A stretch of DNA of 64,000 bases from Elusimicrobia bacterium CG_4_9_14_3_um_filter_62_55 (GCA_002790095.1 PFUL01000183.1:10287-74286), one strand, 5' to 3'; numbered from the stretch's first letter, positions 59-53,217 are shown. Made by a program: numbers and translations. The notes: generated from the sequence alone by a model not told the origin.

Positions 59-3000
59 ATGGAATCCGGCGACAACCTGACGATTTCCTTAAGGGAAGCG
101 TCGGAACCGGGTTCGGTTCGGGTTTTGCTCGACGCCGAATTGATCGAACGCGTGCGCAGCGGCGACCTGCTTTTGATTCGAGACGAAGTGGGCGTGCCCT
201 CCTTGGCCGCGCCGGAAGCGTTGGCGCGCGCGGGGCGTGACTTGGAAGCCGAAGAGGCCTCTGCGCCCGCCGAGGCGCCGGGGGCGCCCGCTGCGGGAGA
301 GTATCAGTACGATCCGAAGGCGGAAGCGGCTCAACTCGCCTCGATGCGCGATGCGGCTCAAGTTTCCTCCGTGAAGCTTTATGACGCGGTCAACGACCGC
401 GTCTACGACGCCTCGCTCGAAAACGATTTAATCGCGAAGGTGGCGCGCGGCGACTTGCGGGTCGCGACGGACGCCGACGGCGTCGTCTACCTGGTGACGC
501 CGGAAGTCCTGGAAGCGTCGCAGCAGCGTGCCGCGCAGGCCGCGGCGGATGCCGAGGCGGAGTCCGCCGCGCAGGCGGCGCCTGATGCGCAGGACGAGAC
601 GCCGGCGGTTGAAGAGAAGTCTCCCGCGATCGAGACGCAGTCTTCCACGGACGAAACGGCCGCGCCCGCCGCGAAGAAAGGGAACAACCCCTCAGGCAAG
701 GCCGGCGCCAACCCCGCGAGTTTTAAGAAGCTCCCCGCCGACGCCCGCGCGATGGACGCCTCCTGGATCCTCGAGGCGAAGAAGGACGCTCAGGCGCGGG
801 CGCGCGCTCAAGCGCCCGACGCGCGCCTGGTCCGCGCCGCAGTGAATCTCGGCGACTCGAACGCGCACTGGTCCTTCATTTTCCATTCCCGGCAGCGCAA
901 CAAGATCATCGTCGTGTGGCCGAAACGGATCGCGGTGCGCAAGGATAAGGCGGCGCTGCGCTGGCCGGTCGGCTACGGCAGCAAGACCGAATTGCGCACA
1001 GCCGACGCCCTTTGGAACACCCGTCTGCGCCGCGTTCGCAGTTTCGAATCGGCCTACACCGCGCTGAAGAAGCAGGCGCATTGGTTCAAGCCGGTGCGCG
1101 TCGAAATCGTCTCAAAGTGGAAGAAGGACCCCATCTTCGCGTTCATCAATGCCAAGGGACGCGTGCTCGAAATCGCGGGTGTCGAAAAGCGCGTCGAAGC
1201 GCCGGCGCAGAAGAAGGAAACGGCTCCTAAGAAGGAAGAGGCGCCCAAGGCGCCGCCCTCCGATACCATCGAGACGCCGCCGGTCGAACCCGACCAGCCG
1301 CCCGCGCAGCCTCCGAAAAGCGGTGACGAGGCCCGCGCCCCGCCCTCGGAGGGCGATCAGGCCAAGGCGCCGCCCGCGGAGTCTCCACCGCCCGGTGCCG
1401 AAGCCTCCTTGGGCTCGCGCTCACGCAATGACGGTCCTCATCTCCATGAGGACTTGTTCGGTTTTAGGAGCGTCCGCGGCCGCAGGCACGGTGAAAAAAT
1501 CGGGCGCCTCCCCTCCGATGCCGATGCCGGCAGAATTATCGAGCAAATAGCCGCACAATTCAACATGACATCGGCTCAGGTGCTCGCGATGGCTTCGCGG
1601 CATCAAATCACCGAGCGTTCGGGACGCGCGGCGTGGTTGGCGGTTTACGATCGCCTGCAAAAGGCGAACCGACAGGAGTTCGTCCAGCTCGACCAGCAAA
1701 AATACCACGGCGGCCTCCTCTCGGAGGCCTTCGGCCATTTTCTGCACCGCGTTGGCCTGAAGAAAAAGGCGCCGAAGGCGCCGGGGTATCGCGAACTCGC
1801 CAATAAGACCTACGCGCCGGGATGGAAGGGCTGGCTGCATCGCGGCGCCGAGATGCACAAGCACGCGGTCGGGTTCCTGATCCGTTTTCCGTATCACCTC
1901 TTCGACATGTTCTTCTTCGGCTACTTCCGAAGGAACATTTCCTACGAGTTCTTCCATTCCACCGAGGATTTCATCACGCTTCGCGACGAGATCGAGTTGA
2001 AGAAAGCCCGCGAGGACGGCAAGCTGACTCCCGAGATGGAGCGGCAGCGCCCCCGCGCGGAGCGCATGCTCGACGGGGCGCTCAAGACGGTGTCGCTCGG
2101 CGGCGTAACGAAGCTCGAACGCCTGCGCGCCAACGCGGCGTACCGCGTTTTCGACCGCTACCTCTGGTCGCCCCTGCTCTCGCCGCTCGGACAGTTCCTC
2201 TACCGCCGGGCGACGCTCGCGATTTTCAGCGCGGCGGCGATGGGACTCGTCGGCGGCTTGCTGCCGCTGCCGGTGATGGCCTTCCACCTTTCCGGAATCC
2301 CGATCCTGGGAGAGGGCTTGATGATGGTCGGACACGGCATTCCGACCGCGGCGGCGAACGTGCCGTTCGTCGGCGATTCTCTCGCGTCGATCACCTCGCA
2401 CGCGATGAACGCCCTGCTCGGCGATTTGACCGTCGGCGCGCTGATCAACACGCTGACGCTTTCCTCGCTGTTGACCTTCCCGCAAGCCGTCCGTCAGCGT
2501 CTGATGGAACTGCGCGGCGACCATCTGTACGTCCCGCCGGTGATGAGCTTCGATTTCATGAAGGGCATGCTCAAGACCCTCTTCACCTGGACTTTCTGGT
2601 CACAGAACCTGAAGAGTTTCGGCGGGCTGCTGCTGGTCGGGGCGGAGATCGAAGGGATCATGACCTATATGGGCGAGGCCGATGCGGCGATCAGCCCCGC
2701 GTTTAAGGCCGCGACCGGACAGGAGTTCCATCTCTTCCACACGATCGGAGCCGCGATCGAACGGCCCGAGGGAGACAGCCCGATTCCCTTCGGCGGGGCG
2801 ATCACTTGGGGCAATATTCTGATCTACAAGCTGCAGGACGCGATCGGCTTCAACCTGTCCGACGCGATCGCCAAGCCGCTGCGCGAGATCTTCTACCAGA
2901 ACGAGGGACCGGACGCGGTTCGGGATGCGCTGCGCTCTTCCAGCCAAAACGCGATGAAGGACAACGGGGTTTCGGTGACCGCCTCGGTCGTCGGTCTCGT

Positions 3001-6000
3001 GAGCCGGGGCGCGATGTCCGAGGCGATGACGGTCGAGCCGGGAACGCCCGAGCAGATGGCGGCCCGGGCCGCAGCCGCGAAGCGCTCGGTCGGCGACATC
3101 GAGCGGGAGATCGCCCAGGTCAAAGAGCGCATCCGTCAGTTGGAGGGGAAGATCGGCGGGGGCGAACGGCGGCTGAAGGAACTCGAGAAGGAGAGTCGCC
3201 CGATTTCCGAGGAAGAGCGCGCCCGCTACGAGGAGACCCTGCGGAGTCTCTCGGCGAAACGCGACGAGGGATACGTCCGTTCCAAGCTCGCCGAAATCAG
3301 CGACATCGAGAACGCCGATGAGGGAACCGCGCGCGTGAAGGCGCTGGCCGATCTTCAGGCCTACTACGCGTCGCTGCTGCCCCAGGACGGCGGCAACGCG
3401 GGGTATCAGGATTCCATCGGCGTGAAGCTCGCCGTGTTTAAAATGGTTCAAGACGCGCTGGCCGACTTCCAAACCGGCCCGAAAGCGAAGCCCGCGCCGC
3501 GCCGAGTCGGAGTGATGGACCAGGAGCGCGCGAAAAAGATCGGACCGCTGGTCGACGAGCTTGAAAAGCTCCGGGCTCAAGCGAAATCGGAGTTGGCGAA
3601 CCGCGACGCGATCGAACGGCTGCTGCGCGCGGTCGAGCAAACGCGCAAGCTCGCGCTTCAGGAGCGGCGCGGCGGCAAGGAGATGCTGGAGTTCCACAAG
3701 AACCTCGCCCGTCTGGCGACGGTGATGGACCTGGCCTTCTCTCTGAATACGATCGAAGCGGCGCAGAAAGCGATCAAGGACATGGAGCACATGCTCGACG
3801 CGAAGCTCGACAAAATCGAGACCCAGCGCCGACAGAGCGAGGCGGATCTTGCCCGCGCCCGCGAGCAGCAAGCGCGCCGCGCGCAGTGGGAGCGCGAGAA
3901 CGCCGACAAGATCAAAGATCACGAAACCTCCAAGGGCGACATGCTCAAGCTTGAGGACCAGACGCGCAAGGCCGTCGAGAACATTCGGGCGTTCCGCACC
4001 GACGTGAGGGCGCTGCTCTCCCGCATCGACGCGGAGGATTCGGGTTCGAGCGGGAGCGCTCTCGCCGAGTACGAACGCCGTTTGGCCCTTCTGCCCGATC
4101 TCCAGCGCTGGGCGCGCGACGGAAACCCCGGCGATCCCGACGCGAACTCGATCAAGAGCCTCAACGAGAAGCTCGTGGACGTCCAGAAATTCCTGGACTC
4201 GGTCGCCGACGGCCTGACGAAGATTCAGCAGGCGCCGGTGGAATTCGCGGGAGTACTCGTCCTTGCGGTCCCGGGTGAGCCGGCATTCAGCGTTTCAAAT
4301 CCCGACACCGCGACCACGCTTCGCCTGCTGGCCGAGCGCAAGGCGCACTGGCAGACCGAACTGGCCGACTATCAGGCCAAGCTGACCGAATTCTCGAATA
4401 GGCTGGACCCATCCTTCAGCGGGACCGAGGCCGACGACTTCGGGGACGTTCATCCGATCTCCTTGCCGAAGCGGCTCGCTGAGGCGCGCGAGGTCGTCTC
4501 CGTCAATCAGGCGGCGGCCGCGGACCTGACCGGACGCATCGACGCCGCGGCGGCGAAGATCCGCGCGGTCGTTCCGGGCGCCGATCTTCCGAACCTTTCG
4601 GGGATGACCCTGGATTCACTGCAGGACGCGGTGGGTGACTACGCCGACAAGCTGAAGGCGGTGACGCTCCCGACCGACGATTCGACCGCCTCGTTCGACG
4701 CGAAGATGGCATTGTTTCAAATCGCCTCGCTTTTGCCGCAGGCCGGGCATGCGGTGATCAAGTGGTCCAAGGGCGACGCCGAAGTCACCGCGATTACCGA
4801 TGCCATGCAGTCCCCGGTACCGCAGGTCAAGGCGCTTTATACGCAGGCGGTCGCCGCGGTGCAGGCGATTATCGACGACGTCGACGCGGACGTCGTTTAC
4901 ATCAATGCCGGCGTGCCGACGCCCGCGGCCAACCAGCAGTTGATCGACCGCAAGACGGCGCTGCTCAACGGCATCCAGCCGACGCTCGCGCAAGCGAAAC
5001 AGGTGATCCAAAGCGACGTCCTTCCCTTCCAACAGGAAAGCGTCGACTCTTATGATCCCAACGGCGATAAGTGGGCGAAGCTGTTCAAGAACCAGAAGAA
5101 GCTCTACGAAGCGACCCGCGACGCGCTGCAAATCACCGTCCCGTGGGCCCTGGCCTCCAACGGCGCGTCGGAAGGCAATACGAGCGGCGCCTTGGCCAAT
5201 ATCGCCGATCAGAACCAGCGCTTCCGAGATCTGCTCGACGGCTACACCGATGAGGACGGGGTTCATACCGGAGTGCTCGAAAATCTCGCGGACATCGCGA
5301 AGCTCAAGGACCCGAACAACACCGAGATGGAGGATGTCTACGGGCAGATGATCCCGGTGTCGCTTCCGCGCCTGATTCAGGTCTTCACCGCAGAGCGCGC
5401 CCAGCGCGCCGGAGAGGTCAACGGGCAGCACGCGGACATCAACAGGATTTTCGCCGACATCGACCGCTTGACGAACAACCGTTTCAACCTCGCAGGCCGG
5501 GCCCTCCCGACCGGGATCACGGCGGGCAGCGACGCGAGCGAGGCGATCGTTCGCCAACTCGTGGACGACAAGGTGTATCAGGATCTGGGAACATTGCTGA
5601 CCGACATCGGCACCGAATACCAGGAACGGGGAGAGGGGTTGACGGATTCCTCGACCAGCGAGGGCGTTCCCTCCGGCGTCCAGCCGACGCCGGACGTCGA
5701 CAACGACACCCGCGTCGCTTTGCTTGCGCTCGAGGCGGCCAAGCGCCTGGTTCCCTCCACCAATCAGAAACCGGAAGACGCCGCGGCGGCCTGGGCCGTC
5801 GCCCGCTACCTCTACAGCGACGCGGTGATCGCGGCCGCGGAGACGAACCTGTACGAGCGCATTCCTTACGCCGAGTCCTTCTTGAACCAGGCCAAAGGCG
5901 CGCTCGAGATTGCGATTTCCGATCTCGACAAGGACAAGACCTATGTGAACTCCACCCAGACCTCCGAGACCCCCGACCAGGTGATGGACCGCAAGATCGC

Positions 6001-9000
6001 GATCTTCTCGGAGCTCAATCAGGTGACCCGCGCGGGGGCCGAGTTCTACGGGGCTCGCATCGATTGGGCCAACGAATCCTTCGAGACGATTGAGGACATG
6101 GAAACCTACTATTCGGCGAGCGGGGACATCCACGACAAGTCTCTCACCGTCGTCGAGAAGGAAATCACCGCGATCAACACGATGAAGGAGTCTCTGAAGA
6201 AGACCTTCGATGAGCTCGAGGACCAGAAAAAGGAACTGGTGCGCTGGATGAACCAGCTCAACCGTCCTGAGGAAAGCGCGCTCAAACGCGTGGGGGAGGA
6301 CCTTCGCAAGATTCAGTTGAAGACCAAGCGCGTGCTCGAAGAAAACATGAAGTTCCGCGATCTGGAGGAACGCTTCGAGCGCTCGGAAGGGGCCCTCGAG
6401 CATACGCTCAAGAGGATCGACGACGTTCAGGGCAAGCTTTCCCGGCAACTGCGCGACCTGCAGGATACGGGCGCGTTGAGCCCCGAGACCCGGCGGCGCA
6501 TCGACGCCTTTAAGATGTCGGGCTCTTCCTGGTTCATGCCGGGCGACACGAAGGACGCGACCTCGGCGCTCGTCATTCCGAAGAAGGACTTCGCGCAGTT
6601 CGTCGAAACGCTGTTCGGCAGTCTGCTCAACCGCACCTCCTCGTCCCGAGACCTCGCCGGTCTGCGGGAGTCTTTGCTCAGCAACCCCGCGGGTCTCGCC
6701 AACGTGATCCCCGGCTCGCAGGTGGTGGACTTCGGCGACGCCGACGGGTTTTATCTGGTGTACCAGAGCCAGTTCTCGGTGCCGCACGGCCTGGAGACCT
6801 CGAGCCTGGTGACGTTGGGCAATGTGGCGAAGATCTGGGGCAACAATGTCAGCGTCTCCGGCTACGTGTTCGCGAGCCCGCCCAACGAGGAGAACGCGCC
6901 TTGGGGCGATAAGGGCGTGAAGGTGCAGATCGAATCCCTGCAGGGCAAGAACTGGGTCAATTATCTGGATGTGGACTTCCATCGCTTCATCCAGAACATT
7001 CCGCCCGACACGCGCATGGCATCGACGGCGCAACAGAGCCGCCTGCTCGTTTTCGAGGACTTCGCGATCATGCTCTTCGGAGACCGGGTCTATATCGCGG
7101 CGACCGGCTTCGGCGACATCGCCACGCATGATGCGGCCAACCAGCCGAAATTCTACGGTGGAAGCCTGAAGACCTCACTGAAATTCACCGAGGTTGTGTT
7201 CCTCGACGCGGAACACCAGGTGATTAAGGCCGATGATCCGCGCTTTTTCGAACAAATTTTCAATCTCGATTTCACCGGGTTGGATTCCGATCTGAACCAG
7301 GACTTCAGGATCCGCTCCGACGCGCAGAATAAGGATTACTCCCGAACTCAGGTCGGACCCCGCATCGACGTCGCGAAACTGATCAACTCGCAGGACGCAT
7401 TTGAAGTGGAGATGTTCTGGGCGCGGCAGCGGGGGACCGACGACTTCAATCAGGACTCCTACGGCGTCAACGTGCTCAAGGGATTTACCCTGCGCGACAA
7501 GGAAGGCAAGCCGTGGGCGGTGATTTCGAATAAGGCCGGCTACGAAAAGGGGGAGAAGTTCAACACCCTCTCCGATCGCGTCAGCGTGCAGTTGCCCGAT
7601 TGGGGCGTCGTCGTGAGCGCCGAAGGCCGTCTGATCGGCGACGCGAAGACCTACTACCTCGAAGCGGCGAAGAAGACCGGCGCGAACACCAGCGCGGCGA
7701 TCGGCTACGGATCGCGCTACGTGGGACAGGAGCCGCGTCTGACGATCTCGATGAATACGTCGTTCACGCTCGGCGAGCTGTGGTCCGCGGTGGCCGACGA
7801 TACGGCCAAGGAATTGACCGGGTCCAAGGCGCTCGAGCCCTACAACAAGGCGATGGACGAGTTTTATAAGGAAGCCGAAAACGACAAACGGGTCGCCGAA
7901 ATGAAGTCCGTCTTCATGCGCGACGTGGGCTCGAAGCTCGTCACGCAGGACATCGGCAAGCTGGTCAAGGACATTCAAGACCTTCGCAAGGCCGGCGCCT
8001 TCCTCGACAACACGCGGGTGCGCGCGACGGTCGGCTTCGTCACCCGCCCGATCGGAGAGTCTCTGGCCGATCGGGCCGTCGGCGGGGGATTCACCGCGGG
8101 TACCTACACGTCCATGGAGCTGTCGAAGACCCAGAAGGCGCTGATCGATTCGAAGATGTCGAGCCTCTACCGCGAGTCGCTTCGCCTGCAGTTCAGGATG
8201 CTGGAACTGACGAAGGATTGGCAGGAAACCGTCACCGAGATCGCCCAATCGCAATGGGACGTGAAAATGGGCGCCACCATGAAGGAGCACGCGCCCACGG
8301 AGACTTTGCGCGCCGAAGGCGCGGCGAAGCTGCGCGAGGCCGAACTGCGGTTGAACCAGGCGACGATTCGCTACAACATGCTCTCCGGGCGCGATCCGGC
8401 GGACGCGCTTCCGTTCGGCGATTTGAAGGCCTCCGACCTCGAGGCTTTGCTCAAGGAGATCCGCTCGCTGATCCAGACCCCGGATTCGCTGCAAAAGGTC
8501 CTTCACGAGTTGGATCCGGAAGTCGTTCGCTCCGTGATGGGGGACAACCCGTTCAATTTGATGGACTGGGTGCCGTGGGTTGAGAAGTTCACCGTCTCCT
8601 TCGGCGCGCAGCTCCAGGACTACATGGCTAATCAGGTGTTGGGCATCGGAACGAATTTCCGCCTGCCCTTCTACGATCCGGCGTCGAAGGAGCGCGACAA
8701 GGCGTACGCGTTGGAATCCCAAGCGACGCTTTCGGAAATCCTTTCGGTATACGACGAGTACGCGCTCGCCTCGCAGAAGAGGCTTCTGGAAGCCCGCTCG
8801 TGGGACGACGGTGCCCGGACGCTGCGGGGCGAAGCCGTCGCCTCCGCGAATCGGCTCTCAGACGCGATCCGGGGCTATCGCAACGGGCTGATCTCCGAAA
8901 GCCGCTTGCGCGAGGCGTTCGGCCAGTGGCATTGGTACATGCAGGGCTTGCTCGAAGCCGAGGCGAAAGCGTCGCTGAGCGCCGGCTGGGCGAATCTCGA

Positions 9001-15109: not shown

Positions 15110-15169
15110 GAGTTAAGGGGTCCTAGGGCGGTCGAAAAAGGAGGGTCTCCCGGTGATAATGAGAGCGAT

Positions 15170-15745
15170 ATGAAAAAATCTACCGTGAACCTTGTGTTGA
15201 TTCCGATCTTCCTGATTGCGAGCGGCTCGGCGGTCTTCGGGCACGGCTCGGGCCGCCAGGCGCCTCCCAACTGGCGGGATCGCGATTTTCACGATCAGAT
15301 CGTCCAACAGGAGATCCGCCGCGCCTCCCGTCCGGGCTACTACGCGGACGGCTCAGATGACGCGGCGAAGGACGGCAGCGGCAAGGGCTTCGACGCTTAT
15401 ACGCCCCGGGAAGCCGATGCGGTTCCCGGTTCCGAGAGCAAGCCGACGGCCTCGCTCGACGGGGCGGCGGTCGAGGAGAAGGGCCTTCCCGCGAAGAACG
15501 TCCCGGATCCGAAGGCGAAGTCCTCCGAAAAAGAGGGAAAGGGATTTCTCGCGAAAACCGGCGACGCCGTCGGCGGGTTTTTTAAGGGCACCTGGGAGTT
15601 CCTCAAGGCCAAGAAAATGATGGTCGGCGGCGCTGCGGCGGGCGCGATTATCGGCGGCCTGTTCGGCGGTCCTTTGGGCTTGGTCATGGGTTTGTTCATC
15701 GGCGGCTTCGGCGGCTGGTGGGTCGGCGACGGCCTGGGAGTTTAA
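15170..15745 (+). CDS. Small secreted or membrane protein with a C-terminal glycine-zipper helix
   Basis: ATG with GAGAG 5 nt upstream. N-terminal signal peptide MKKSTVNLVLIPIFLIASGSAVFG. C-terminus GGAAAGAIIGGLFGGPLGLVMGLFIGGFGGWWVG. Lies 60 nt after giant gene 1 on the same strand. Confidence 0.75.
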   Translation: MKKSTVNLVLIPIFLIASGSAVFGHGSGRQAPPNWRDRDFHDQIVQQEIRRASRPGYYADGSDDAAKDGSGKGFDAYTPREADAVPGSESKPTASLDGAAVEEKGLPAKNVPDPKAKSSEKEGKGFLAKTGDAVGGFFKGTWEFLKAKKMMVGGAAAGAIIGGLFGGPLGLVMGLFIGGFGGWWVGDGLGV

Positions 15746-15774
15746 TCCCTCCGGCAGCAATTTAAACGGGCTTC

Positions 15775-15803
15775 GGCCCCCGTGTCCTTCGGGACCGGGG
15801 GCC
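15775..15803 (+). terminator. GC-rich stem-loop with a TTCG loop downstream of the 191-aa gene
   Basis: GGCCCCCGTGTCC-TTCG-GGACCGGGGGCC with one bulge. No clear T-tract follows, so terminator function is uncertain. Confidence 0.4.
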
Positions 15804-15861
15804 GATTCCGCTTGTGTCGGGCATCATGGTTTCCTCAGCGAATCGGCGTTAGGCTATAGGT

Positions 15862-16308
15862 ATGCCCTTAAGACAAGTCAGCGAGCTTCTCGCAAGGACG
15901 ATCGAGTATCACCGCAAAGCGGCCGGTTATTACGCGGGCATGGGGGCGCACGCGAATAAGGAAGCGGTCCGGCTTGTTACCGAGTATTTGGCGGGGCACG
16001 AACTCGTCTTGGTGAAGAGGTTGGAGGATTTTTTATCGCGCGGGGGACATGAAGTCTGCCGAACCTGGCTCCAAAGCGATCCGGACTATCACATGGAGCG
16101 GATTCTAGACGGACTTCAGGTCGACCGCGCGGTCGACGCCGCGGAGATCATCGAGACGGCCGTGGAGTTGAATCGGCGCCTGATCGAATACTTCCGGCGG
16201 ATGAGAAGCATCTCCCCGAACAAGCACGTCGAGGAGTTGTTCTGGTCGTTGGAAGCGCACGAACTTGATGAGCAAAGGAGACTCTCCGCGATGGCGTGCG
16301 AGGTTTGA
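15862..16308 (+). CDS. Hypothetical all-helical protein (148 aa)
   Basis: ORF with normal composition and GC-rich third positions. No recognisable motif and no clear Shine-Dalgarno sequence. Confidence 0.6.
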   Translation: MPLRQVSELLARTIEYHRKAAGYYAGMGAHANKEAVRLVTEYLAGHELVLVKRLEDFLSRGGHEVCRTWLQSDPDYHMERILDGLQVDRAVDAAEIIETAVELNRRLIEYFRRMRSISPNKHVEELFWSLEAHELDEQRRLSAMACEV

Positions 16309-16323
16309 TCCGCGCCGGAATGA

Positions 16324-45100: not shown

Positions 45101-45984
45101 AGTCCGGCGGCTTCCGCGTCGTCGGAACGGGATCCGCCGGCTTCCCGAACGTCGGGATGCAGGTGGTTCCGTCGGCGACGGCGCGCTTCCAACTGATCGC
45201 GAATTCGCTGGTCGAGTCGATCGAAAACCCGGGGACGAAGCGGATCACGGTCGTCAACCACGCCAATTCGAAGGACCTCAAGCAGATGCGCCGCTATCTG
45301 CTGCGGACGGGGCTGGTCTCGGAAGGAGAGATCACGATGATCTTCTCCGACGCCGTGGCCCTGGGCGAGACGATGCCGCAGGCGAACGTGCGAAAGACGA
45401 TGAATTTAGGCGCGCTTGATACCGGCCGCGCGCGCATCGTCCTGATGGATACGCGCGTCGCGGGACGCGGTCTCGACCTCAACTGGAAGGGAGGCGGATA
45501 CAGGAAGGTCGACGTCTACTTCATGGACCCGCACAAGATCTCGCAGGTGCACGAGGTTCAGGCGGGCGGCCGCGTCGACCTCGACCGACTCCTGCCCGGC
45601 GCGGAGCGCACCTTTACGCGCGTGATCGACATCGCGAGCGCGAAGAACGACCCCGCCTTCCAGGAGGCGATGCTTTTCCACCCGCAGTTCCGCTCGATCT
45701 ACTACGAACTGATGAACAATCCGCCGCCGAGCCTGCGCCAAAGTATGTCGATGCGCGGCGTCGGGACCGCCGACTGGCAGGCGCGCCACGATTGGATCAT
45801 GTCCTTGCCCAAGGACAACCCGATCCGGCTGTCCTACTTCAACCTATTCACGGATTACGTGCGCAATTCGCAGCTGGAAGAGGAAGTCAGTCAGCTCAAG
45901 TCGTCGCGCTTCCTTGAGGGTCCGAACATGAATATCCCCGCGCATGCCCCCGCGCTGCATTGGGCCCCGAAGCTGTCCCGCTAA
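36196..45984 (+). CDS. Giant protein 2 (about 3262 aa): signal peptide, about 650-aa N-terminal region, hydrophobic cluster, helical region, and a split SecA-type (DEAD-like) ATPase with a giant coiled-coil insertion
   Basis: Uninterrupted 9.8-kb ORF. ATG at 36196 gives [42 protein letters not shown]; the alternative TTG at 36154 is the ORF-track start. Hydrophobic segments near 38190-38630. ATPase motifs are listed in the sub-features. Confidence 0.9.
   Translation: [3262 protein letters not shown]
40504..40925 (+). other. SecA-like nucleotide-binding domain 1 (motifs I and II)
   Basis: [19 protein letters not shown]...[13 protein letters not shown] (Walker A at 40603-40623) aligns by eye to SecA [10 protein letters not shown]...[29 protein letters not shown] corresponds to [27 protein letters not shown] (DEYD at 40885-40896) corresponds to YALVDEVDSILIDEA. 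Confidence 0.7.
40926..44991 (+). other. Insertion of about 1,385 aa, predicted helical/coiled coil, between ATPase motif II and motif III
   Basis: E/K/R/A/L/Q-rich heptad-like sequence throughout. It occupies the position where SecA carries its roughly 160-aa preprotein cross-linking domain. Confidence 0.65.
44992..45640 (+). other. SecA-like motif III and nucleotide-binding domain 2
   Basis: [26 protein letters not shown] (45052-45066) corresponds to SecA [45 protein letters not shown] (45457-45480) corresponds to [30 protein letters not shown] is a degenerate version of NQLRGRSGRQGD. SecA helical scaffold, wing and C-terminal domains are not seen. Confidence 0.7.
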
Positions 45985-46101: not shown

Positions 46102-49100
46102 ATGGGTAGAATGGCCCACCGCAGACGCCTCGTGCCGTCGAGCATGCCGGAGCGATTTTGTCGCGTCGCTCTGTCGCTTTTGTTGGCCGTTCCCCAGACC
46201 TTGATTCCGGTCGCGGCGTTCGCCGAAACTCCCGCCGCGGTCGACTATTCGAAGCTCACGCCTCCGGTCGGGGAAGCCGACTGGGCGGCGCGCCTGGAGC
46301 TTCTCAAAAAGCGCTACTCGCAACTGCTCGTCGAAGCGGCGAAGAGGCTTGCCGCCGAAGACAGCGCAACCGGGGCGGCCGCGGCCGAGAAATTCGTCAA
46401 GGAGCAGATCAATCCGCTTCAGGCGGCAATCACCGCCCATCGGCGGATTCTGGCGATGAGCTCCGCCGGCCGTAAATTCGCGGGAGGGTTCGACGGCGCG
46501 ATTACCGAGACCGCCCTGCTCAAGAATTTGCTCGATTGCGCCAACGAGAAGAATCTGAAGGAGCCCGCCTCGGGTTCGGACTGTCTCGGCCGCATGGTGA
46601 AGACGATGGTCGCCGGCGAGCCGCAAACGCGCGGCGAGGGCGAGAAGCGCTTTCCCTGGGTCGGCGCCGCCGAGGCGAAGCTTAAGGTGCTCGAGTCCCA
46701 AGCCTCCAAGCTCTCCGCCGATTCCAACGAGCGCAAGAGCCTCGAGGTGCAGATCAAGGAACTCAAGGCCATCCTCGACACCGCCAAGGAACTCCAGGCG
46801 ACCGGCGGCCCGATGGAGGTCACCGCCGCGCTGACCGGGGAGTTCAAGAAAGTCGTCGCGGCCCGCGGCGAAGGACAGTCATTCGCCGTCAGCACGGAAG
46901 ATCTCGGGAAACTGCGCAAATCCGTGGCCGACATCAAGCGGGCGTTCACGCTGGAGGATACCGGCGACCGGGAGGCCAATATCGTCCAGGCGCAGGCGCT
47001 GCTCGGGCAGGCCTTCGACCGGATGCGTAAGTTTCAAACTTCCGAGGCGAATCTCCCCCAGATCGAAATCGCCCGCAGCGCCGCCGCCAAGCAGGTCGAG
47101 ACGCAGGCGGGGGGCCCCAAGGGATTTAAGGCGATCGCGGTCCCCACTCTGCGTTCGGACAACGGCAGCTATGCCGGCAGCGACTCGATCGACGAACGGC
47201 GCCGCGCGATGGCGCTGTTCGGTCAGGGCGCCGTCTCCCGGTTCGCCGGTCAAAGCGAGTTCGACCGCACGAAAGCAGGAGAGGAGATCAAGGGACTCGA
47301 CCGCGACGGCTTGATGGGGCGCATCGACTCGAACGAAAACCTGATCCGCAACGCCATCGAAAATTCGTTCAGCAACAGCAAGAGCGCGCTGTTCGGGAAA
47401 TTCTCCCGGAACGTCGAATTCCTCGCCAATCCCTGGAAGGCGCAGCAGGAGATCACCGATCAGGAGCAGTACAACGAGGTGATGTCCAAGGGCATTCAGG
47501 AACTGGAGGCCGCCGGCTTCTCCGACGCGGCGATGTACTACCGGGCGAAGCTCGACCATCTCGGCCGCTCCTGGAGCGCGATCGGAAGCGGCAGCCTCAA
47601 GCACGGAACGGCTTTCCACGCGTGGGAACTCGCCAAGATTCCGGTCGACAACCGCCAGATGCCGTGGGAGCAGGTGCCTCCGTCGGGTCCGCGCGTCGCG
47701 CAGCGGGTGTTCTACGCCGAGGTCAACGACGACGGACGGAAGGTCCGCGGGCTGGTGACCGAGTTCGCCGGCGGGATGATGCGCTTTGAGGGTTTCCAGG
47801 ACAAGGGACAGGATCACCATTTGTACGTGGACGTCGCGGCGAACGGCGAGGTGACGACCGGGCGGATCTGGACCGACGCTCAAGGAGCCGTTCAGCGCGT
47901 GCATTCGGCGACCGCGCGGGATGGAAAACGCATTCGCGCGATGCTCGCGAACACGAAGGAAGCCCTGCTGACGCAGTGGGGTTTTAAAGAGGACGGCTCA
48001 ATCGCGTCGGTCCAAACCATCAACCTGGAAACGCGGCATATGACGACCGCGAATTTGGAAAAGGGAACGATCACCGCGATCGCCGCCGACGGAACGATGT
48101 CCGTCGCGTCCCTGAAAGCTCAGGAAAAGTGGAAGTACCTCTACGGGGATCTCGAAACGGCCGCCGCGACGGCGGCAGGCGAGGAGCCGCGGCGGGAATT
48201 CAAGCAGCGCGAAATGGTTTTGGCCGACGGAACGCGCATCCGCAACGCCGGCCCGCACGTGCAGATCGTCACCCCGCCTACGGGCGATATTCGCTACCAA
48301 TTCCACGATTTCGAGAACGAGCTGTTCGCGCCTCCGCCTGCGACCGGATCCCCGGATCGCCATCTGGAGGTGGTGGCCCAGTGGGAGAGGGGGCGGCGTG
48401 CGCGGGCGGCGAAAATCGCCGAGGAGATCGTCGGCGCTCTCGGCAAGAACAACGAGAACTTCCGCGGCAAGGAGGGGGAGCGGCGCAAGCAGTCGTTGAC
48501 GGAGATGCTTGCGAGGATCCAGACCAAGGACAGCGCCGCCCCGGGTGGAAGCCGGCGCGTCGACCTTAAAATCAATTTCGACGGAAGGGGTCAGTTCTCG
48601 TTCCTCTACGAGTTGGCCGACGGGCGCAAGGAAGCGTTCCAGGGCCGTTTCGCAAGCGCGATCCGAATGGCCCACGACGCAGCGGAGTTGAGCGCGTTCC
48701 AGGTCGGACGCCCGGTCGTGCTGGAAAAGCAGGGCGACAAGCTCGCCCCGGTCGAGGGATTGACCCATTTCAGCCACGGGCGCCGCTTCATGCAGTTCGT
48801 GTCGGACGGTAAAAACACGACGATCCGCCGGCAAATTTACGACCAGTATGAGAAAACCGAGGGTTGGGCGATCGCTCCCTATCAGGTGACCTATCAGCGC
48901 GAGTGGGTATACAAGGCGACGGCCGGTCGGATGTCGCAGAGCGACTTTAACAAGATGTGGGAGTGGGACGGCCAGCACGGCGACCTGATGAATTATTTCG
49001 ACAACAAGTACGCCTACAAAGCCCTGACGGATCCCGTGAAATTGAGGGAAGGTTCGTCCTGGATCGGAAGTTCGGCGGCGTGGGTCGCCGATCTCCCCGT

Positions 49101-52100
49101 GCTCAAGCAGGTCGTCGAAGGCGCCGAGTTCATCGTGGACGGCGCCGTGATGGCCGGGCAGTGGGGGATCGAAGAGATCGCGGAGGGTTTCGGCGCCGAC
49201 GATCTCGCGGAGAGCTACCGGCTCGCGCGCGTCGGCAACATGCGCCAGATGCCGTGGATCGGAGACACCGATTGGATGAAGAAGGCGGCCGACAAAGCCC
49301 TGACCGAAGAAGGCGGCGCCGACATCGCCAGGGCCTACATGGGGGAGGGCCGCGAGAAGGCTTTGAAGAAGGAAGGGTTTACGCACGCGAACGCCGACAA
49401 TCCTCTTGAATTCAACCGCATGCTGATGGCGGAAGGTCAGTTGGGAGAGCTTTCCGGAGCCGCGCGGGACAACTTCTCCTTCGGAAACGAGTTGAACCCG
49501 ATCCTCGGTGAAGACCACTGGCTGACCAAGAGCTGGCAGGTGGTCTCCGGCATCGCGAAGGGCGCGCCGCTGTTCATTCCCGTGGGCCAGATTCTTCAGA
49601 AGTTCAAGATGGCCAAGGCCCTGGTCACCCCGGTGACGATCGCCGAAACGACGGTGAAGGTCGGGTTGATGGCGACCTTCGGCATGTCGTTTGCCGAGAA
49701 CATGAACAAGATCAGCTACGACGCCTATAAAGGCGACTGGGACGCGGTGAAAGGCCGCGCGCCGCAGATGGTCTTCGATTTGGCGATGGCGTTGGCGATG
49801 GGGAAGCAGGTTAAGAACAACTGGGGAACGATCAAGCAAAGTTCGTTCGACATGTACACGAAGGGGAAGAATTGGATCAACCGGAACAAGGGCAACCCGA
49901 CGATCGTCAAGGCGCCGCCCGGGAACCCGGGTGTGGTCGATCCCGCCGTGAAGGCCGCCTCTCCCCAGAATCAAGCCCTGCAGCCCGACATCAAGGCTCA
50001 GAATCTCGGCAAGGCGCCGCCGCAGCAAAAGGGGAATCAAGCGGCGCCGATCGAACAAGGGGGGGTGAAACCCGTCGTTCCCAAGGCGGCTCCCGTCGAG
50101 CCGGCGCGGTCCCCCGTGCGCACGACTTCGCTCGGAACCGAAGGGGGGATGGGGACCGCCCGCTCGATCGGCGGAAACCTGAACGCCGCCGCGGGGGAAT
50201 CGCTCGGCGGACGAAGCTTTAACCCGAAGGGAAACACCACCGGGACTCGGACGCTGACCGGCGATCTGCGCAATCTTAAAACGGGAACGCAAGGCGCCAA
50301 GGGGGCGCCCAAGGGCCAAACCTACCGCCCGGCCGATGTGAAGGCCGGCCCCAAGGGCGACCCGGTCGTCAAGCCGGTGCCCCGCGGCGCGCCGAACGCG
50401 GGACCGAAGGCCGGACCGAAGCCGGTCGTCGCCGAGACGACGGGACGGGGCGTCGGGCCGAAGGTCACCGTTCCCGAAGTGAAGCCGGCCGTTTCGCCCG
50501 CCGGGAAGGGCGGAGCGACCGGGGCGCCGGTCGAAGTCGCCGCCGCGAATTTCGCGCCGGGACAGGCCGTCGGTCCCCAGGGCTTCGTCGCGAAGCCGCC
50601 TCCGGGAAGCGCGGGCCCGGCCCGCACGGCGGCGCCGAAACCGTTGACTCCCGAGACGCGCGCTCCGACAAAGGCGAGCGGCGCCCCGAAGGTCGAAGTG
50701 AGGGGAAAGGCCGTTCCTAAAGGGACTGCGGCGCCGAAGCCTGAGATCGCCCGCGTCGCCGGAGAAGAGGGCGCCGCAGCGCAGGCCGCGCTGCGGCCCG
50801 GCGCCAAGCCGCCGGTCGAACGGGGCGGCGTTCTCGAGCCGATCAGGCGTTCGGCGAAGTCTCAGGCGAACGTCCCCGAGGCGAAGCTGCTGGAAAATCT
50901 CTCCGAGATCCGTTCCCGCGCCCAGCGGATGAGCGCCGCGCAGCGGCAACTCGGCATCACCAAACAGCAGGCCGCCGCGGTCAACAAGGCTCACGTGAAG
51001 GTCAACTGCCCGGCGGGGAACTGTTCGGGAGCTCAGATTCGAGCCAAAGCGCAAATCATGAAGGACGCGGGAATGACCCCGAAACAGATCCGCGGCGCGA
51101 TGGAACGCGGTCTCGCCGGGGAGCCGCCGGTTAAATCCGCGTCGGCGGCCCCGGAGCTTCAAGGACGCGGGCAATCCGCGGGGAAGCCTCAGCGCGTGCG
51201 GCCTTCGAATGGACCGAAGGACGCGTCGCCGCGGCAGCAGGCGGCCGACACGGTCAAGCGTTCGCTGCGCCAGGCGGAGCGTCTGCGCTTGGAAAAAGGC
51301 AGCGCGATGGAGGTCGCGAATCTCGAACAGGCCGCCTCGAAATTGATTCAGGAACACGGTTTGACGGCCGGCGAAGTCGGCTATCAGGCGCAGGGAGGAC
51401 GCTATCTCCGCGCTCCGAAGGGCTCGGCAAAACCCGCGGGCACGATGGAAGGAACCTTCGAGTCCGCCAAGACGCCCAAGGCGCCGAAGGAGGGATTGCC
51501 GAAGCGGGTGGCGGCGGATACCGCCGGAACTTTGCTGACTCCGGAAGGTTGGTTCAACGCCTTGGAGACCGTCAACCCGATGCGCTGGCCGGGACGTATT
51601 CTCAACGTCGGCAAGCGCCTCGGTTCTTCCATCACCACGCGAACGCCGACCTTCAACCGCTGGGCGAAGAGTCTGGGACTTAAGATCAACGAGGTGAGTC
51701 CGAACTGGCTCCGCCGGGTCGGCCGGGGTCTCTCGAAGAAATACAACGAATACCAGGGCAGCCGCCACGTCAACAACACGCTCAACTATCAGTCGAAGAT
51801 GCTCAAACTTCGTCAGAAGCTCAGCTACATGCGCGGTCAGAAGCCGGTTCGGGCGGCGGGTCAAAGCTGGGTTTCCCACAAGTGGAATCAGTTCCGGTAC
51901 CTGCGGGCCCGCGCGCTCGGTAAGATTCCGGGATACGGCAAGCTCAACGAACGGATGCTGCAGAAGCGCATCGGGAATTTCAAGGGCCGCGCGAAAACCG
52001 CCCGCGCCTTGGCCAAGGAACATCTGGGCCGCGACGTCCGCAATGCCGGTGCGCGAGGCAAGGTGGCGGACGGCCGCTATCGTGCAAAATGGCGTGAAGC

Positions 52101-53217
52101 GAAAAAAGCCGGCGCGTTCCGACGCAATTGGAAGCGCTGGGCGGCCGAAGGTCTGCTGATGGCCGGACTCATCGGCGGACCATACCTCTACGATAAGTAC
52201 ATGACCCGTGCCCCCGAGGTGGACGATGGCGAGTTTATCGACATCGGCGACCCGAACGCGGAAGAAGAGCCGATGAACCCGTTCTCCCATGAGCCGAATC
52301 CTTCCGTCATCGACAATGGGACCGGTGATCGTACGGGTGTCGATTCGAAAGACCACACTCTCACGGGCGACGATACGAAGAACACCTACCGGGCGCCCGA
52401 TGAGGATGGTTCTCAGACCGGGGGCTCTCCGACGGGCGGCGCTCCGACCGGCGGGGCTTCTCCGTCGGGCTCCGCCGGCGGCGGCGGAGGCGGCGGAGGA
52501 GGAAGCGGCGGAGGCGGCGGCGGAGGCGGCAGTGGAGGCGGCGGCGGAGGCGGCGGCGCTGCGCCGGCGGGCGCGGCAGGCAACGAGCAGGCTTCGGGTC
52601 CCGCCCCGAATTGGAACGCTCCGGCGGGCAAGACAGCGCTCGCGATGAATGCGCGGCCGATTCCCGGCCTCGTGCAGCAGAACGCCGACGGGATGCCCGG
52701 TTTCGGGATGCCTTGGGCGCCTCCGGGCGGCAGCGGTGCCGACCGGAAGATGCCGGCGGGCGTTGTGGGAGGCCGTGTGGTGCTGGGCGAAAAGTCCGCG
52801 CTGCCGCAGTACCAGTTTTCAACGAGCGGCCCGTCGAGTTCTTTGGCTCAGTTGTGGCCTTTCGCGCCGCGCGATCCGTTTGCCGGCGTTGAAAAGAAGG
52901 GCCGTTCGCAGCAGGTGGCTCCGGAGCCGGCTCCGCGGATCAACGACGCGCCGTCCGATCAGCGCGCTCCCGCCGCGGCCTCCCGGGTCCCGTCGCAGGA
53001 CGAGGAACTGCGCTACGATCTTATGAAGACGTTTCTGCGCCCGGCGCGCCATATTCAGAGCGGACATCCGGGGTCCGCGCCGGAACCCGCGAAAGGCGCC
53101 GGGCTGGCGCTCTTGCTGCAGATGCTCGCGCTCGCGGGCGGCATCTACCTGTGGCGCTTCTCGAATATCGGCTACGTGCTGGGACTTCGCCGGCGCGACT
53201 ACTACGGCAGGGACTGA
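46102..53217 (+). CDS. Giant protein 3 (2371 aa): signal peptide, large N-terminal region, hydrophobic cluster, TonB-like Pro/Lys/Gly-rich spacer, basic region, poly-Gly tract, C-terminal tail anchor
   Basis: Uninterrupted 7.1-kb ORF. Signal-like RFCRVALSLLLAVPQTLIPVAAFA-ETP. Hydrophobic segments near 49560-49810. P/K/A/G-rich stretch about 49900-50830. TM-like AAEGLLMAGLIGGPYLY. C-terminal GAGLALLLQMLALAGGIYLWRF followed by RRRDYYGRD. No clear Shine-Dalgarno sequence at either ATG (46102 or 46111). Confidence 0.9.
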   Translation: MGRMAHRRRLVPSSMPERFCRVALSLLLAVPQTLIPVAAFAETPAAVDYSKLTPPVGEADWAARLELLKKRYSQLLVEAAKRLAAEDSATGAAAAEKFVKEQINPLQAAITAHRRILAMSSAGRKFAGGFDGAITETALLKNLLDCANEKNLKEPASGSDCLGRMVKTMVAGEPQTRGEGEKRFPWVGAAEAKLKVLESQASKLSADSNERKSLEVQIKELKAILDTAKELQATGGPMEVTAALTGEFKKVVAARGEGQSFAVSTEDLGKLRKSVADIKRAFTLEDTGDREANIVQAQALLGQAFDRMRKFQTSEANLPQIEIARSAAAKQVETQAGGPKGFKAIAVPTLRSDNGSYAGSDSIDERRRAMALFGQGAVSRFAGQSEFDRTKAGEEIKGLDRDGLMGRIDSNENLIRNAIENSFSNSKSALFGKFSRNVEFLANPWKAQQEITDQEQYNEVMSKGIQELEAAGFSDAAMYYRAKLDHLGRSWSAIGSGSLKHGTAFHAWELAKIPVDNRQMPWEQVPPSGPRVAQRVFYAEVNDDGRKVRGLVTEFAGGMMRFEGFQDKGQDHHLYVDVAANGEVTTGRIWTDAQGAVQRVHSATARDGKRIRAMLANTKEALLTQWGFKEDGSIASVQTINLETRHMTTANLEKGTITAIAADGTMSVASLKAQEKWKYLYGDLETAAATAAGEEPRREFKQREMVLADGTRIRNAGPHVQIVTPPTGDIRYQFHDFENELFAPPPATGSPDRHLEVVAQWERGRRARAAKIAEEIVGALGKNNENFRGKEGERRKQSLTEMLARIQTKDSAAPGGSRRVDLKINFDGRGQFSFLYELADGRKEAFQGRFASAIRMAHDAAELSAFQVGRPVVLEKQGDKLAPVEGLTHFSHGRRFMQFVSDGKNTTIRRQIYDQYEKTEGWAIAPYQVTYQREWVYKATAGRMSQSDFNKMWEWDGQHGDLMNYFDNKYAYKALTDPVKLREGSSWIGSSAAWVADLPVLKQVVEGAEFIVDGAVMAGQWGIEEIAEGFGADDLAESYRLARVGNMRQMPWIGDTDWMKKAADKALTEEGGADIARAYMGEGREKALKKEGFTHANADNPLEFNRMLMAEGQLGELSGAARDNFSFGNELNPILGEDHWLTKSWQVVSGIAKGAPLFIPVGQILQKFKMAKALVTPVTIAETTVKVGLMATFGMSFAENMNKISYDAYKGDWDAVKGRAPQMVFDLAMALAMGKQVKNNWGTIKQSSFDMYTKGKNWINRNKGNPTIVKAPPGNPGVVDPAVKAASPQNQALQPDIKAQNLGKAPPQQKGNQAAPIEQGGVKPVVPKAAPVEPARSPVRTTSLGTEGGMGTARSIGGNLNAAAGESLGGRSFNPKGNTTGTRTLTGDLRNLKTGTQGAKGAPKGQTYRPADVKAGPKGDPVVKPVPRGAPNAGPKAGPKPVVAETTGRGVGPKVTVPEVKPAVSPAGKGGATGAPVEVAAANFAPGQAVGPQGFVAKPPPGSAGPARTAAPKPLTPETRAPTKASGAPKVEVRGKAVPKGTAAPKPEIARVAGEEGAAAQAALRPGAKPPVERGGVLEPIRRSAKSQANVPEAKLLENLSEIRSRAQRMSAAQRQLGITKQQAAAVNKAHVKVNCPAGNCSGAQIRAKAQIMKDAGMTPKQIRGAMERGLAGEPPVKSASAAPELQGRGQSAGKPQRVRPSNGPKDASPRQQAADTVKRSLRQAERLRLEKGSAMEVANLEQAASKLIQEHGLTAGEVGYQAQGGRYLRAPKGSAKPAGTMEGTFESAKTPKAPKEGLPKRVAADTAGTLLTPEGWFNALETVNPMRWPGRILNVGKRLGSSITTRTPTFNRWAKSLGLKINEVSPNWLRRVGRGLSKKYNEYQGSRHVNNTLNYQSKMLKLRQKLSYMRGQKPVRAAGQSWVSHKWNQFRYLRARALGKIPGYGKLNERMLQKRIGNFKGRAKTARALAKEHLGRDVRNAGARGKVADGRYRAKWREAKKAGAFRRNWKRWAAEGLLMAGLIGGPYLYDKYMTRAPEVDDGEFIDIGDPNAEEEPMNPFSHEPNPSVIDNGTGDRTGVDSKDHTLTGDDTKNTYRAPDEDGSQTGGSPTGGAPTGGASPSGSAGGGGGGGGGSGGGGGGGGSGGGGGGGGAAPAGAAGNEQASGPAPNWNAPAGKTALAMNARPIPGLVQQNADGMPGFGMPWAPPGGSGADRKMPAGVVGGRVVLGEKSALPQYQFSTSGPSSSLAQLWPFAPRDPFAGVEKKGRSQQVAPEPAPRINDAPSDQRAPAAASRVPSQDEELRYDLMKTFLRPARHIQSGHPGSAPEPAKGAGLALLLQMLALAGGIYLWRFSNIGYVLGLRRRDYYGRD
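52477..52557 (+). repeat. GGC/GGA simple-sequence tract encoding three runs of 8-9 glycines separated by single serines
   Basis: 81 nt made almost entirely of GGC/GGA codons with AGC and AGT interruptions, preceded by PTGG-type repeats (TGGSPTGGAPTGGASPSG). Confidence 0.9.

Follow-up and report, generated by a model that had tools for sequence, protein, structure and literature searches.

Giant genes of an Elusimicrobia contig: a predicted SecA-like ATPase and its conserved 5000-residue partner in Elusimicrobiota

The DNA analysed here, referred to below as the window, is a stretch of 64,000 nucleotides from Elusimicrobia bacterium CG_4_9_14_3_um_filter_62_55 (GCA_002790095.1, PFUL01000183.1:10287-74286). 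Three giant open reading frames (ORFs) lie on its + strand: G1 (59-15109; 15.1 kb, 5016 aa), G2 (36154-45984; 9.8 kb, 3276 aa) and G3 (46102-53217; 7.1 kb, 2371 aa). A first-pass annotation of this DNA had reported the three ORFs and read them as parts of one envelope-spanning apparatus; ORF calling placed all three at exactly these positions. Gene callers put the start of G2 at Met15 (nt 36196), giving a protein of 3262 aa, and called it upstream of G3. The present analysis centres on G2, which modelling of a homologue identifies as a SecA-like ATPase, and on G1, its syntenic partner in other Elusimicrobiota.

The GC content of the window was about 64%, and the GC content at third codon positions (GC3) was 0.80-0.84 in the frames of G1, G2 and G3. 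As this matched the neighbouring genes, the giant ORFs were taken to be real coding sequence. High GC content yields many spurious long ORFs on the opposite strand, and the window begins 24 nt from a contig end; both would suit the view that the giants arose by mis-assembly or are frames left open by chance in GC-rich DNA. That view is scarcely credible, since the GC3 signature was confined to the giant frames and the long antisense ORFs opposite them lacked it. An identical G3 protein was encoded on 8 contigs in the ENA and Logan assemblies, and each of the giants had homologues in other metagenome-assembled genomes (MAGs), one of which (L002) encoded a G2 homologue matching over the full length of G2. 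The exact copies of G3 and the full-length G2 homologue argue against a chimeric assembly, a worry raised at first pass that can be set aside, and mis-assembly of the giants is very unlikely. BLASTP and hhalign detected neither internal repeats in G1, G2 and G3 nor any relatedness between them. Paralogy and internal repeats among the giants were rejected on these searches, and the idea that they are related parts did not survive at the level of homology.

The N-terminus of G2 showed a predicted Sec-type signal peptide (36196-36315, +; …APAWVYA/EP), visible both in the sequence and as a peak in the hydropathy of the family. The sole conserved transmembrane (TM)-like helix followed at aa 681-699 (38194-38250, +; family-mean hydropathy 1.56); as its downstream flank was the more positive, an N-out, C-in orientation is predicted. 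The first half of the motor (40471-40983, +), containing nucleotide-binding domain 1 (NBD1), carried a Walker A motif KTGGGKT (aa 1484-1490) and a Walker B motif (S)DEYD (aa 1577-1581), with APFLAPATTIG following DEYD (near aa 1578). A tile covering NBD1 matched the Pfam models ResIII/DEAD with an E value of 1e-7 (aa 1475-1546). The motor was then interrupted by an insertion of about 1,300 aa (40984-44871, +; aa 1611-2906) at the position of the preprotein-binding domain of SecA, known as the preprotein cross-linking domain (PPXD). This insertion was charged, poor in aromatic residues and mostly helical in character, with a patchy heptad periodicity. About 1,300 residues past DEYD, G2 read RRFWELHFKTGLTMPYEHQALVNMRNFV…PIIGFSGT, then AGRGLDL and QAGGRVD. 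These belong to the second half of the motor (44872-45675, +; aa 2907-3174), which comprised a PPXD-like end, motif III (GFSGT, aa 2967-2971) and NBD2 (AGRGLDL, aa 3103-3109; QAGGRVD, aa 3136-3142).

The motifs of G2 resembled SecA motifs I, II, the PPXD end with III, V and VI, and their order was identical. Both the Walker A (GxGKT) and the Walker B (DExD) motif of NBD1 were present, with G-K-T and D-E-x-D invariant in the family. In NBD2 the motif V GRGxD and the motif VI arginine were present, and the R residues were likewise invariant. Family-wide, Walker A, DExD, motif III, the GRG of motif V and the R of motif VI were invariant or nearly so, and the motor of G2 is predicted to be catalytically intact. 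The distance between motifs II and III varied in the family from 173 aa (SecA about 180) to 1,410 aa, and G2, in which this interval was largely helical and sat at the SecA PPXD position, was the longest. Compact family members had an insertion of 173-241 aa, a SecA-like length with SecA-like flanks; by hhalign, the motif II to III spacing in compact motors was 154 residues, the same as in Escherichia coli SecA. The first-pass annotation had also described kilobases of coiled coil in the giants. Heptads were indeed enriched (12-21% of the windows scored within the giants, against a null of 5%), but they were patchy and did not run for kilobases.

Alignment of G2 with a compact homologue of 1,001 aa, P0075, gave two colinear BLASTP blocks: aa 1440-1610 of G2 aligned with aa 304-473 of P0075 (E 2e-6) and aa 2907-3174 with aa 563-825 (E 8e-20). 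It follows from their colinearity that aa 1611-2906 of G2 replace about 90 helical residues of P0075. When the compact motors of the family were aligned with E. coli SecA by hhalign, three colinear local matches were obtained, at SecA residues 104-147 (Walker A), 204-237 (Walker B) and 358-393 (the PPXD end and motif III). A profile search of the PDB returned DEAD-box helicases at E values of about 1e-3 and residues 347-587 of Thermus thermophilus SecA (2ipc) at 0.009. An AlphaFold2 model of P0075, built on a multiple sequence alignment of 42 sequences, had a mean predicted local distance difference test score (pLDDT) of 77.9, and a pLDDT above 90 over most of residues 270-915. Foldseek analysis of this model revealed that the best 30 PDB matches were all SecA or SecA2 (E 4e-13 to 2e-6, over alignments of 640-946 columns); the first match outside these proteins was DinG (E 1.4e-5). 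The SecA-fold assignment of G2 rests on its homology to the modelled P0075 together with the alignment of both of its halves, and by this modelling G2 is a SecA-like ATPase whose two-lobe motor is split by an insertion. The SecA-like ATPase of the first-pass annotation is thereby upheld on structural grounds.

Several observations weigh against this assignment. The Pfam models SecA_DEAD (PF07517), SecA_PP_bind (PF01043) and SecA_SW (PF07516) matched no member of the family. No SecA model of Pfam or NCBIfam matched tiles of G2, P0075, P0050 or P0080 at E ≤10, and none matched any of 18 members of alignment A3 at E ≤0.01. The curated models that did match the family were the generic ResIII, DEAD and Helicase_C only, and beyond such weak superfamily 2 (SF2) helicase matches and coiled-coil noise, NCBIfam, Pfam and PDB searches returned nothing for G2. 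Individually, the sequence-profile matches to SecA were non-significant, and when the profile of the G2 C-terminus was compared directly with E. coli SecA, the motif V patch alone aligned, again without significance. The confident structure is that of a distant homologue, P0075, and not of G2: an AlphaFold2 model of the C-terminus of G2 itself, built on 3 sequences, was of low confidence (pLDDT 48), and although Foldseek placed SecA first for it, the match was weak. Finally, the TM-scores of the Foldseek matches were modest (0.22-0.49), which is to be expected of a multidomain protein with flexibility.

The Pfam result leaves room for G2 to belong to a mobile or defence element as its SF2 helicase or translocase, working on DNA or RNA together with the Y1_Tnp/DnaA_C gene described below, with the giants as 'polyvalent' proteins of that element. 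Pfam sees ResIII, DEAD and Helicase_C alone, and one family member has been annotated as a DEAD/DEAH helicase. Foldseek, however, favoured SecA/SecA2 by at least 7 orders of magnitude over near full-length alignments, the insertion lay at a SecA-specific site between SecA-like flanking motifs, and the signal peptides and membrane anchors are ill-suited to a DNA enzyme. We regard a nucleic-acid motor as very improbable.

An exhaustive HMMER search with a profile of the G2 C-terminus yielded at least 80 clusters at 50% identity; no ordinary SecA was found among 80 such clusters. Nearly all full-length members were 2,300-3,400 aa long and had the SecA-like module at the C-terminus, and the search returned no protein of more than 3,434 aa. 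All of the members with a named source (11 of 11) came from Elusimicrobia/Elusimicrobiota, and by these names the family is known so far from Elusimicrobiota alone. Classic Sec signal peptides were present throughout the N-termini of the family. The family-averaged hydropathy showed two peaks only, corresponding to the signal peptide and to the helix at G2 aa 681-699. One member of the family, the partial Elusimicrobiota protein P0080, carried an AAA_5 (MoxR/dynein-like) domain at aa 1059-1153, downstream of its SecA-like motor.

Comparison of the window with related loci (numbered with the prefix L) revealed a conserved gene order around G2. The closest relatives, L002 (an Elusimicrobia MAG whose G2 homologue was 57% identical over its full length) and L001, kept the order o949-G2-G3. 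Six further genomes (L009-L014) shared the order of a gene of about 435 aa, an o749-like gene, an o949-like gene, a G2-like gene, a Y1_Tnp gene of about 300 aa and a G1-like giant; the o749-like gene was present in 5/6 and the o949-like gene in 4/6, and L014 was without the Y1_Tnp gene. In all six the G2-like gene adjoined a G1-like gene, encoding a protein of 4,162-5,940 aa that was 28-52% identical to G1. This adjacency persisted where the identity to G2 had fallen to approximately 21-27%, from which a functional coupling of G1 and G2 is inferred.

Two smaller genes accompanied G2 in these genomes. The first, o749 (27178-29427, +), encoded a conserved accessory protein with a predicted N-terminal TM anchor at aa 92-112 (nt 27451-27513) and a conserved region at aa 20-400; its homologues lay upstream of the G2 homologues in L008-L011, L013 and L014 (32-42% identity), and it had no Pfam or PDB match. 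The second, o949 (33219-36068, +), also a conserved accessory gene, probably starts at Met18 (nt 33270) and would encode a Sec signal peptide (…SYAFA/ED). A homologue was found directly upstream of the G2 homologue in L002 and L007-L012, and no Pfam match was obtained for it. Gene order across the phylum shows G1 and G2, together with o749 and o949, to be syntenic partners.

The order within the window was permuted: G1, a kinase gene and a LysM gene, then o749, o949, G2 and G3. The closed 3.8-Mb genome CP096137.1 (L006) had the order Y1, G1-like gene, kinase, LysM, and L007/L008 had a G2 homologue together with the Y1, kinase and LysM genes. Judged by these alignments, the window contains, in rearranged form, a cluster that is conserved in Elusimicrobiota. 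In L006, the 15-kb G1 homologue (3100-18270) and the histidine kinase gene (19830-22010) were both split by frame changes, which are probably long-read assembly indels rather than signs of pseudogenes. The 106-kb source contig, k141_213749, ends about 24 nt before position 1 of the window, just upstream of G1. In related genomes a Y1_Tnp/DnaA_C gene sits before the G1 homologue and the G2 homologue before that, and the contig break may hide a Y1_Tnp gene or a second G2 paralogue.

G1 matched nothing in Pfam, NCBIfam or PDB sequence searches, and a scan of JGI (Joint Genome Institute) metagenomes with it gave no match; homologues were found in at least 8 Elusimicrobiota MAGs. The sequence was non-repetitive and had no signal peptide, so that the secretion-type N-terminus which the first-pass annotation gave to all three giants applies to G3 and to the G2 family but not to G1. 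Alignment with four homologues, with hydropathy and charge averaged over six sequences, revealed a conserved hydrophobic domain at aa 713-875 (2195-2683, +). Its hydrophobic segments (approximately aa 718-742, 785-808 and 853-872) and a positively charged loop (aa 809-852) point to likely three membrane passes; both the domain and the charge distribution of its loops were conserved in the six-sequence average. A central cluster of hydrophobic helices, proposed for each giant, is therefore strong and conserved in G1 (aa 713-872), whereas G2 had one TM-like helix and G3 two weak central segments only. At the C-terminus of G1, a stop-transfer-like anchor (15011-15079, +) consisted of a TM helix at aa 4985-5003 followed by RRRR. 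The order of coiled coil, Pro/Asn linker, TM helix and RRRR was kept in the L006 homologue. The C-terminal helix with an Arg-rich patch, noted at first pass for G1 and G3, was present in both sequences (RRRR and RRRD, respectively), and the design of G1 is conserved in a homologue.

Two ORFs just after G1, whose small to medium-sized products would be secreted or membrane-bound, were not conserved in L006 and had no family match. The product of that at 15170-15745 (+) was 191 aa long and combined a signal peptide with a glycine-zipper-like segment at its C-terminus, and that of the ORF at 16324-17970 (-) was Gly/Ser-rich and 548 aa long.

G3 carried a predicted signal peptide at aa 22-41 with a cleavage-like AFA/ET (+ strand, as for all features of G3), a low-complexity spacer rich in Pro, Lys and Gly by composition (nt 49939-50901; aa 1280-1600), a 26-residue Gly/Ser tract (nt 52480-52557; aa 2127-2152) and a C-terminal TM helix (nt 53095-53160; aa 2332-2353) followed by RRRD. 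Searches of Pfam, NCBIfam and PDB sequences returned nothing for G3 beyond Gly-linker artefacts; the Gly/Ser tract explains its misleading PDB matches to engineered single-chain variable fragment (scFv) linkers. The spacer had been called TonB-like. Its likeness to the Pro-rich spacers of TonB and TolA lies in its extended-linker composition, but no TonB_C match was found in Pfam or NCBIfam, the anchor of G3 is C-terminal and not N-terminal, and no ExbB/D genes were present in the window. Likewise, TolC-like duct repeats had been proposed for one of the giants, and OEP (PF02321) matched none of G1, G2 and G3 at E ≤0.1 in Pfam, nor at all in NCBIfam. With no TonB_C, TolA or OEP match in any giant, and no ExbBD/TolQR genes nearby, both the TolC-like and the TonB-like reading were dropped. 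Sorting of the PEP-CTERM or LPXTG type was considered for the TM helix and Arg-rich tail of G1 and G3; no NCBIfam sorting-signal model matched, and a Pfam scan of the window proteins revealed no sortase or exosortase gene.

The distribution of G3 differed from that of G1. Homologues of G3 were found after G2 in the two close relatives L001 and L002 only; a homologue search with a G3 tile gave no match, and no relative of G3 was detected beside the other G2 homologues examined, where different small genes were present. In L009 the gene after the G2 homologue encoded a secreted SLT lytic transglycosylase of 350 aa (17635-18687) and in L007 a beta-rich, Gly/Asn-rich protein of 345 aa (11833-12870), neither of which was similar to G3. 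The expectation that the three giants would co-occur in related genomes thus held for G1 and G2, adjacent in six other Elusimicrobiota genomes, but not for G3. By its distribution, G3 is a lineage-specific neighbour of G2 outside the core system.

By Pfam, the interval between G1 and G2 comprised ordinary genes, whose products were a histidine kinase, LysM-FecR, glucodextranase-like and CBM48 proteins, and a DUF1861+PF10091 enzyme. The sensor histidine kinase (21008-23353, +) and the LysM-FecR-Glucodextran_B protein (23214-24734, +) formed a pair that recurred in two other genomes, following the G1 homologue of L006 and lying close to the G2 homologue of L007. The DUF1861+PF10091 fusion gene (30496-33141, +; E 7.7e-99 and 3.9e-60, respectively) bears out the GH144-like glucanase of the first-pass annotation, PF10091 being the GH144 endo-beta-1,2-glucanase catalytic domain. 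As the flanking o749 and o949 are adjacent in other genomes, this gene looks like a lineage-specific insertion. An ORF at 18040-18684 (-), whose 214-aa product combined a signal peptide with an HNH-like motif, YDHLLSLCLGGSNDLRNLWP, is probably the HNH nuclease of the earlier annotation; the motif is visible, but Pfam was silent. The hydrolases among which the giants had been described as embedded, like the glycan-active genes generally, sit in lineage-specific insertions within an otherwise conserved cluster and are incidental to it. Between o949 and G2, a GC-rich inverted repeat at 36099-36127 (GGGCCCATCCGG…CCGGATGGGCCC, then TTCGGG) resembled a terminator, so that G2-G3 may be transcribed separately. 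Directly downstream of G3, the ORF at 53849-56698 (-) encoded 949 aa with a response-regulator receiver and a PPDK_N domain (phosphoenolpyruvate-utilising, ATP-binding), an unusual signalling architecture. The gene for this PPDK_N-receiver protein was followed, by Pfam, by genes for glutamate dehydrogenase, one TPR and one PDZ protein, and then by panC.

The Y1_Tnp gene, absent from the window, encoded an IS200-like protein of about 300 aa, often with a DnaA_C helix-turn-helix, at L009 22353-23267, L010 18803-19708, L011 19235-20137, L012 14881-15786, L013 17540-18457, L006 507-1409 and L007 16318-17238. Its identity between genomes was 54-81%. Because it is far better conserved than the flanking giants, a domesticated regulator is suggested rather than an active transposase. 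Toxin-antitoxin pairs (PhdYeFM/PIN, HicB/PIN and BrnT/CopG, in different genomes) lay in or beside the cluster at L007 13000-13619, L009 21196-22112 and L013 3885-5190. The retention of the Y1_Tnp-like gene between G2 and G1 homologues and the frequency of toxin-antitoxin pairs would both suit the nucleic-acid motor considered above. However, the GC and GC3 of the cluster match the chromosome, housekeeping genes flank it, and it is vertically conserved within one phylum. A phage tape-measure protein or a conjugative 'polyvalent protein' was rejected as an explanation of the giants: the cluster is chromosomal in context and vertically conserved throughout the phylum, and signal peptides and a SecA-type fold occur among its proteins.

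Taken with the predicted topologies of G1, G2, G3, o749 and o949, these results suggest how the cluster might be arranged in the envelope. G2 would be a bitopic inner-membrane protein, with a cleavable signal peptide followed by about 630 periplasmic residues; the helix at aa 681-699 would cross the membrane, leaving about 2,570 residues in the cytoplasm, with its supply of ATP, that end in the SecA-type two-lobe ATPase. The cytoplasmic location of the motor is deduced from the signal peptide and the single conserved membrane helix of the family. Within the motor, the helical sub-domain at the PPXD position would have expanded from about 90 to about 1,300 residues. The N-terminus of G1 would lie inside, the protein entering the membrane through its conserved hydrophobic domain (aa 713-872, with the loop aa 809-852 cytoplasmic); about 4,100 residues would be outside the cytoplasm, and the C-terminal helix would return so that RRRR is inside. 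G3, with its signal peptide and C-terminal anchor, would be mostly extracytoplasmic, as would o949, with its signal peptide, and o749, with its N-terminal anchor. As these topologies put much of G1 and G3, the N-terminal domain of G2, o749 and o949 outside and the motor inside, an envelope-associated machine is a reasonable reading. The trans-envelope machine of the first-pass annotation is supported to that extent by the topologies and by the synteny of G1 and G2, but nothing was found to reach or span the outer membrane, and its predation-type reading is speculation.

SecA is the universal bacterial export motor, and the translocation of large periplasmic domains of inner-membrane proteins requires it. 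Accessory Sec (aSec; SecA2/SecY2) systems export serine-rich-repeat adhesins. An export or assembly role for G2 is suggested by this need for SecA, by the SecA2 adhesin systems and by the proposal of West-Roberts et al. discussed below. The reading that we favour, tentatively and at somewhat less than an even chance, is an envelope system specific to the phylum, whose membrane-tethered SecA paralogue would export or assemble giant partners; its function, its association and its substrate are all inferred. The tethered motor would spend ATP on threading or assembling the giant domains that its partners have outside the cytoplasm, and perhaps its own N-terminal domain as well, by analogy with the accessory SecA2 systems that specialise in very large surface proteins.

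The chief tension in this proposal is that G2 has a signal peptide although its ATPase has to remain cytoplasmic, and its resolution hinges on a helix that is only moderately hydrophobic; a failure of that helix to cross the membrane would send the motor out together with the signal peptide, an outcome for which the model has no explanation. Three features of gene content also count against it: a SecY-like channel gene is absent from the cluster, G1 and G2 are 21 kb apart in the window and not adjacent, and the L007/L008 genome has a G2 homologue with no G1 homologue in the 10 kb downstream.

The same gene content bears on the alternative that the giants are independent surface or periplasmic fibres or adhesins, that the SecA domain of G2 exports or anchors G2 itself only, and that the neighbourhood is a set of co-regulated envelope proteins with no shared machine. 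The giants share no homology, only close relatives keep G3 beside G2, no G1 lies near G2 in one genome, and self-export is the hypothesis of the literature for Omnitrophota giants (bioRxiv 10.1101/2023.11.21.568195). Against this, the adjacency of G2 and G1 in six genomes despite a G2 identity of approximately 21-27% is hard to explain without functional coupling, and the predicted motor is C-terminal to the exported part of G2, so that it would be made after ordinary Sec should have engaged the N-terminal domain. Self-export alone is rather unlikely on this balance.

The moderate hydrophobicity of the candidate TM helix and the signal peptides universal in the G2 family would also fit a secreted giant effector, the whole of G2 being exported and delivered to another cell where ATP is available. 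Weakly hydrophobic central segments would then insert or translocate as in large clostridial toxins, within a contact-dependent attack or attachment system. A lytic transglycosylase follows the G2 homologue in L009, and Elusimicrobia have been listed among the phyla prone to huge proteins and host-associated lifestyles (PMC11573180). We consider this reading improbable, however, as no toxin, peptidase, adhesin or secretion-system domain was detected in the cluster with Pfam and NCBIfam, the inner-membrane stop-transfer anchors of G1 and G3 argue against release, and a predatory lifestyle of the lineage is without support.

A bolder version of the favoured envelope system takes the insertion of G2 to be an arm. 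An Elusimicrobiota-specific envelope machine with a helical arm of about 1,300 residues, the polytopic, C-terminally anchored G1 and the two accessory proteins might translocate, tension or assemble an extracytoplasmic super-structure, which we consider possible though doubtful. It is similarly doubtful that the arm amounts to an SMC/Rad50-like split ATPase built on a translocase motor, and so to a new class of export or mechanical apparatus beyond SecA2. As in SMC and Rad50, the ATPase halves of G2 lie on either side of a very long helical stretch, which has to double back on itself; in contrast, SMC and Rad50 are of the ABC type whereas G2 has a RecA/DEAD-type fold, and an antiparallel coiled coil in G2 is only putative, its heptads being patchy.

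Comparison with known systems placed SecA and SecA2 (PDB 5eul, 6itc, 1tf5, 6t4h and 4uaq) as the best structural matches by a wide margin. G2 shares with them the two-lobe DEAD-like motor with Walker A, DExD, G(M/F)(T/S)GT, (A/G)GRGxD and arginine finger, and a domain inserted between motifs II and III, for which compact members have the spacing of E. coli SecA. It differs in its length (3,276 aa against about 900), in matching no Pfam SecA model, and in having a signal peptide of its own, a periplasmic domain, a TM anchor and an insertion of about 1,300 aa, all as predicted. About 100 helical residues followed NBD2 in P0075 and about 100-170 in G2, which makes a full scaffold and wing in G2 doubtful. 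No C-terminal zinc-finger tail turned up on G2, though no search was aimed at such tails.

Special-cargo SecA paralogues (SecA2) are rare and important in pathogenesis. Like the aSec systems, the cluster would place a dedicated SecA paralogue beside very large surface proteins with C-terminal anchors. However, it is without genes for SecY2, Asp proteins or glycosyltransferases, its putative substrates lack repeats, the motor would be membrane-anchored and the host is diderm, so that the analogy is functional only. Giant proteins of Omnitrophota and Actinobacteria carry divergent SecA motors without scaffold and wing, for which self-export has been proposed (West-Roberts et al. 2023, bioRxiv 10.1101/2023.11.21.568195). 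The motors of those giants are recognised by PF07517, and the proteins are 10,000-147,000 aa long and contain many catalytic or adhesion domains and many TM helices (bioRxiv 10.1101/2023.11.21.568195; 10.64898/2026.06.07.730766). G2 resembles them in that its SecA-type motor is part of a very large membrane-associated protein and seems to lack the canonical scaffold and wing, and in the export role hypothesised for it. It differs in its 3,276 aa, in being PF07517-negative with one conserved TM helix and no other domain, in belonging to a separate Elusimicrobiota family, and in having a conserved, separately encoded partner of 4,100-5,900 aa.

A SecA-like motor inside a giant membrane protein is therefore already known in other phyla, and the novelty claimed at first pass has to be narrowed accordingly, SecA motors in giants having been reported from Omnitrophota and Actinobacteria (bioRxiv 10.1101/2023.11.21.568195). 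What is new is an Elusimicrobiota-only family that is invisible to curated SecA models, with a simpler architecture and an extreme helical expansion at the PPXD site, and its conserved separate partner of about 5,000 aa and two accessory proteins. Thousands of residues of conserved, domain-less protein stay wholly unannotated in Elusimicrobiota. The compact 1,001-aa homologue P0075, with its confident model, offers a tractable entry point to the family. A SecA-type motor with its own predicted signal peptide and anchor is genetically tied to a 5,000-residue partner across an uncultured phylum. If the proposed function holds, this would show how polypeptides thousands of residues long can be exported or assembled by a cell, and the theme of a giant protein with a private SecA would reach beyond Omnitrophota.

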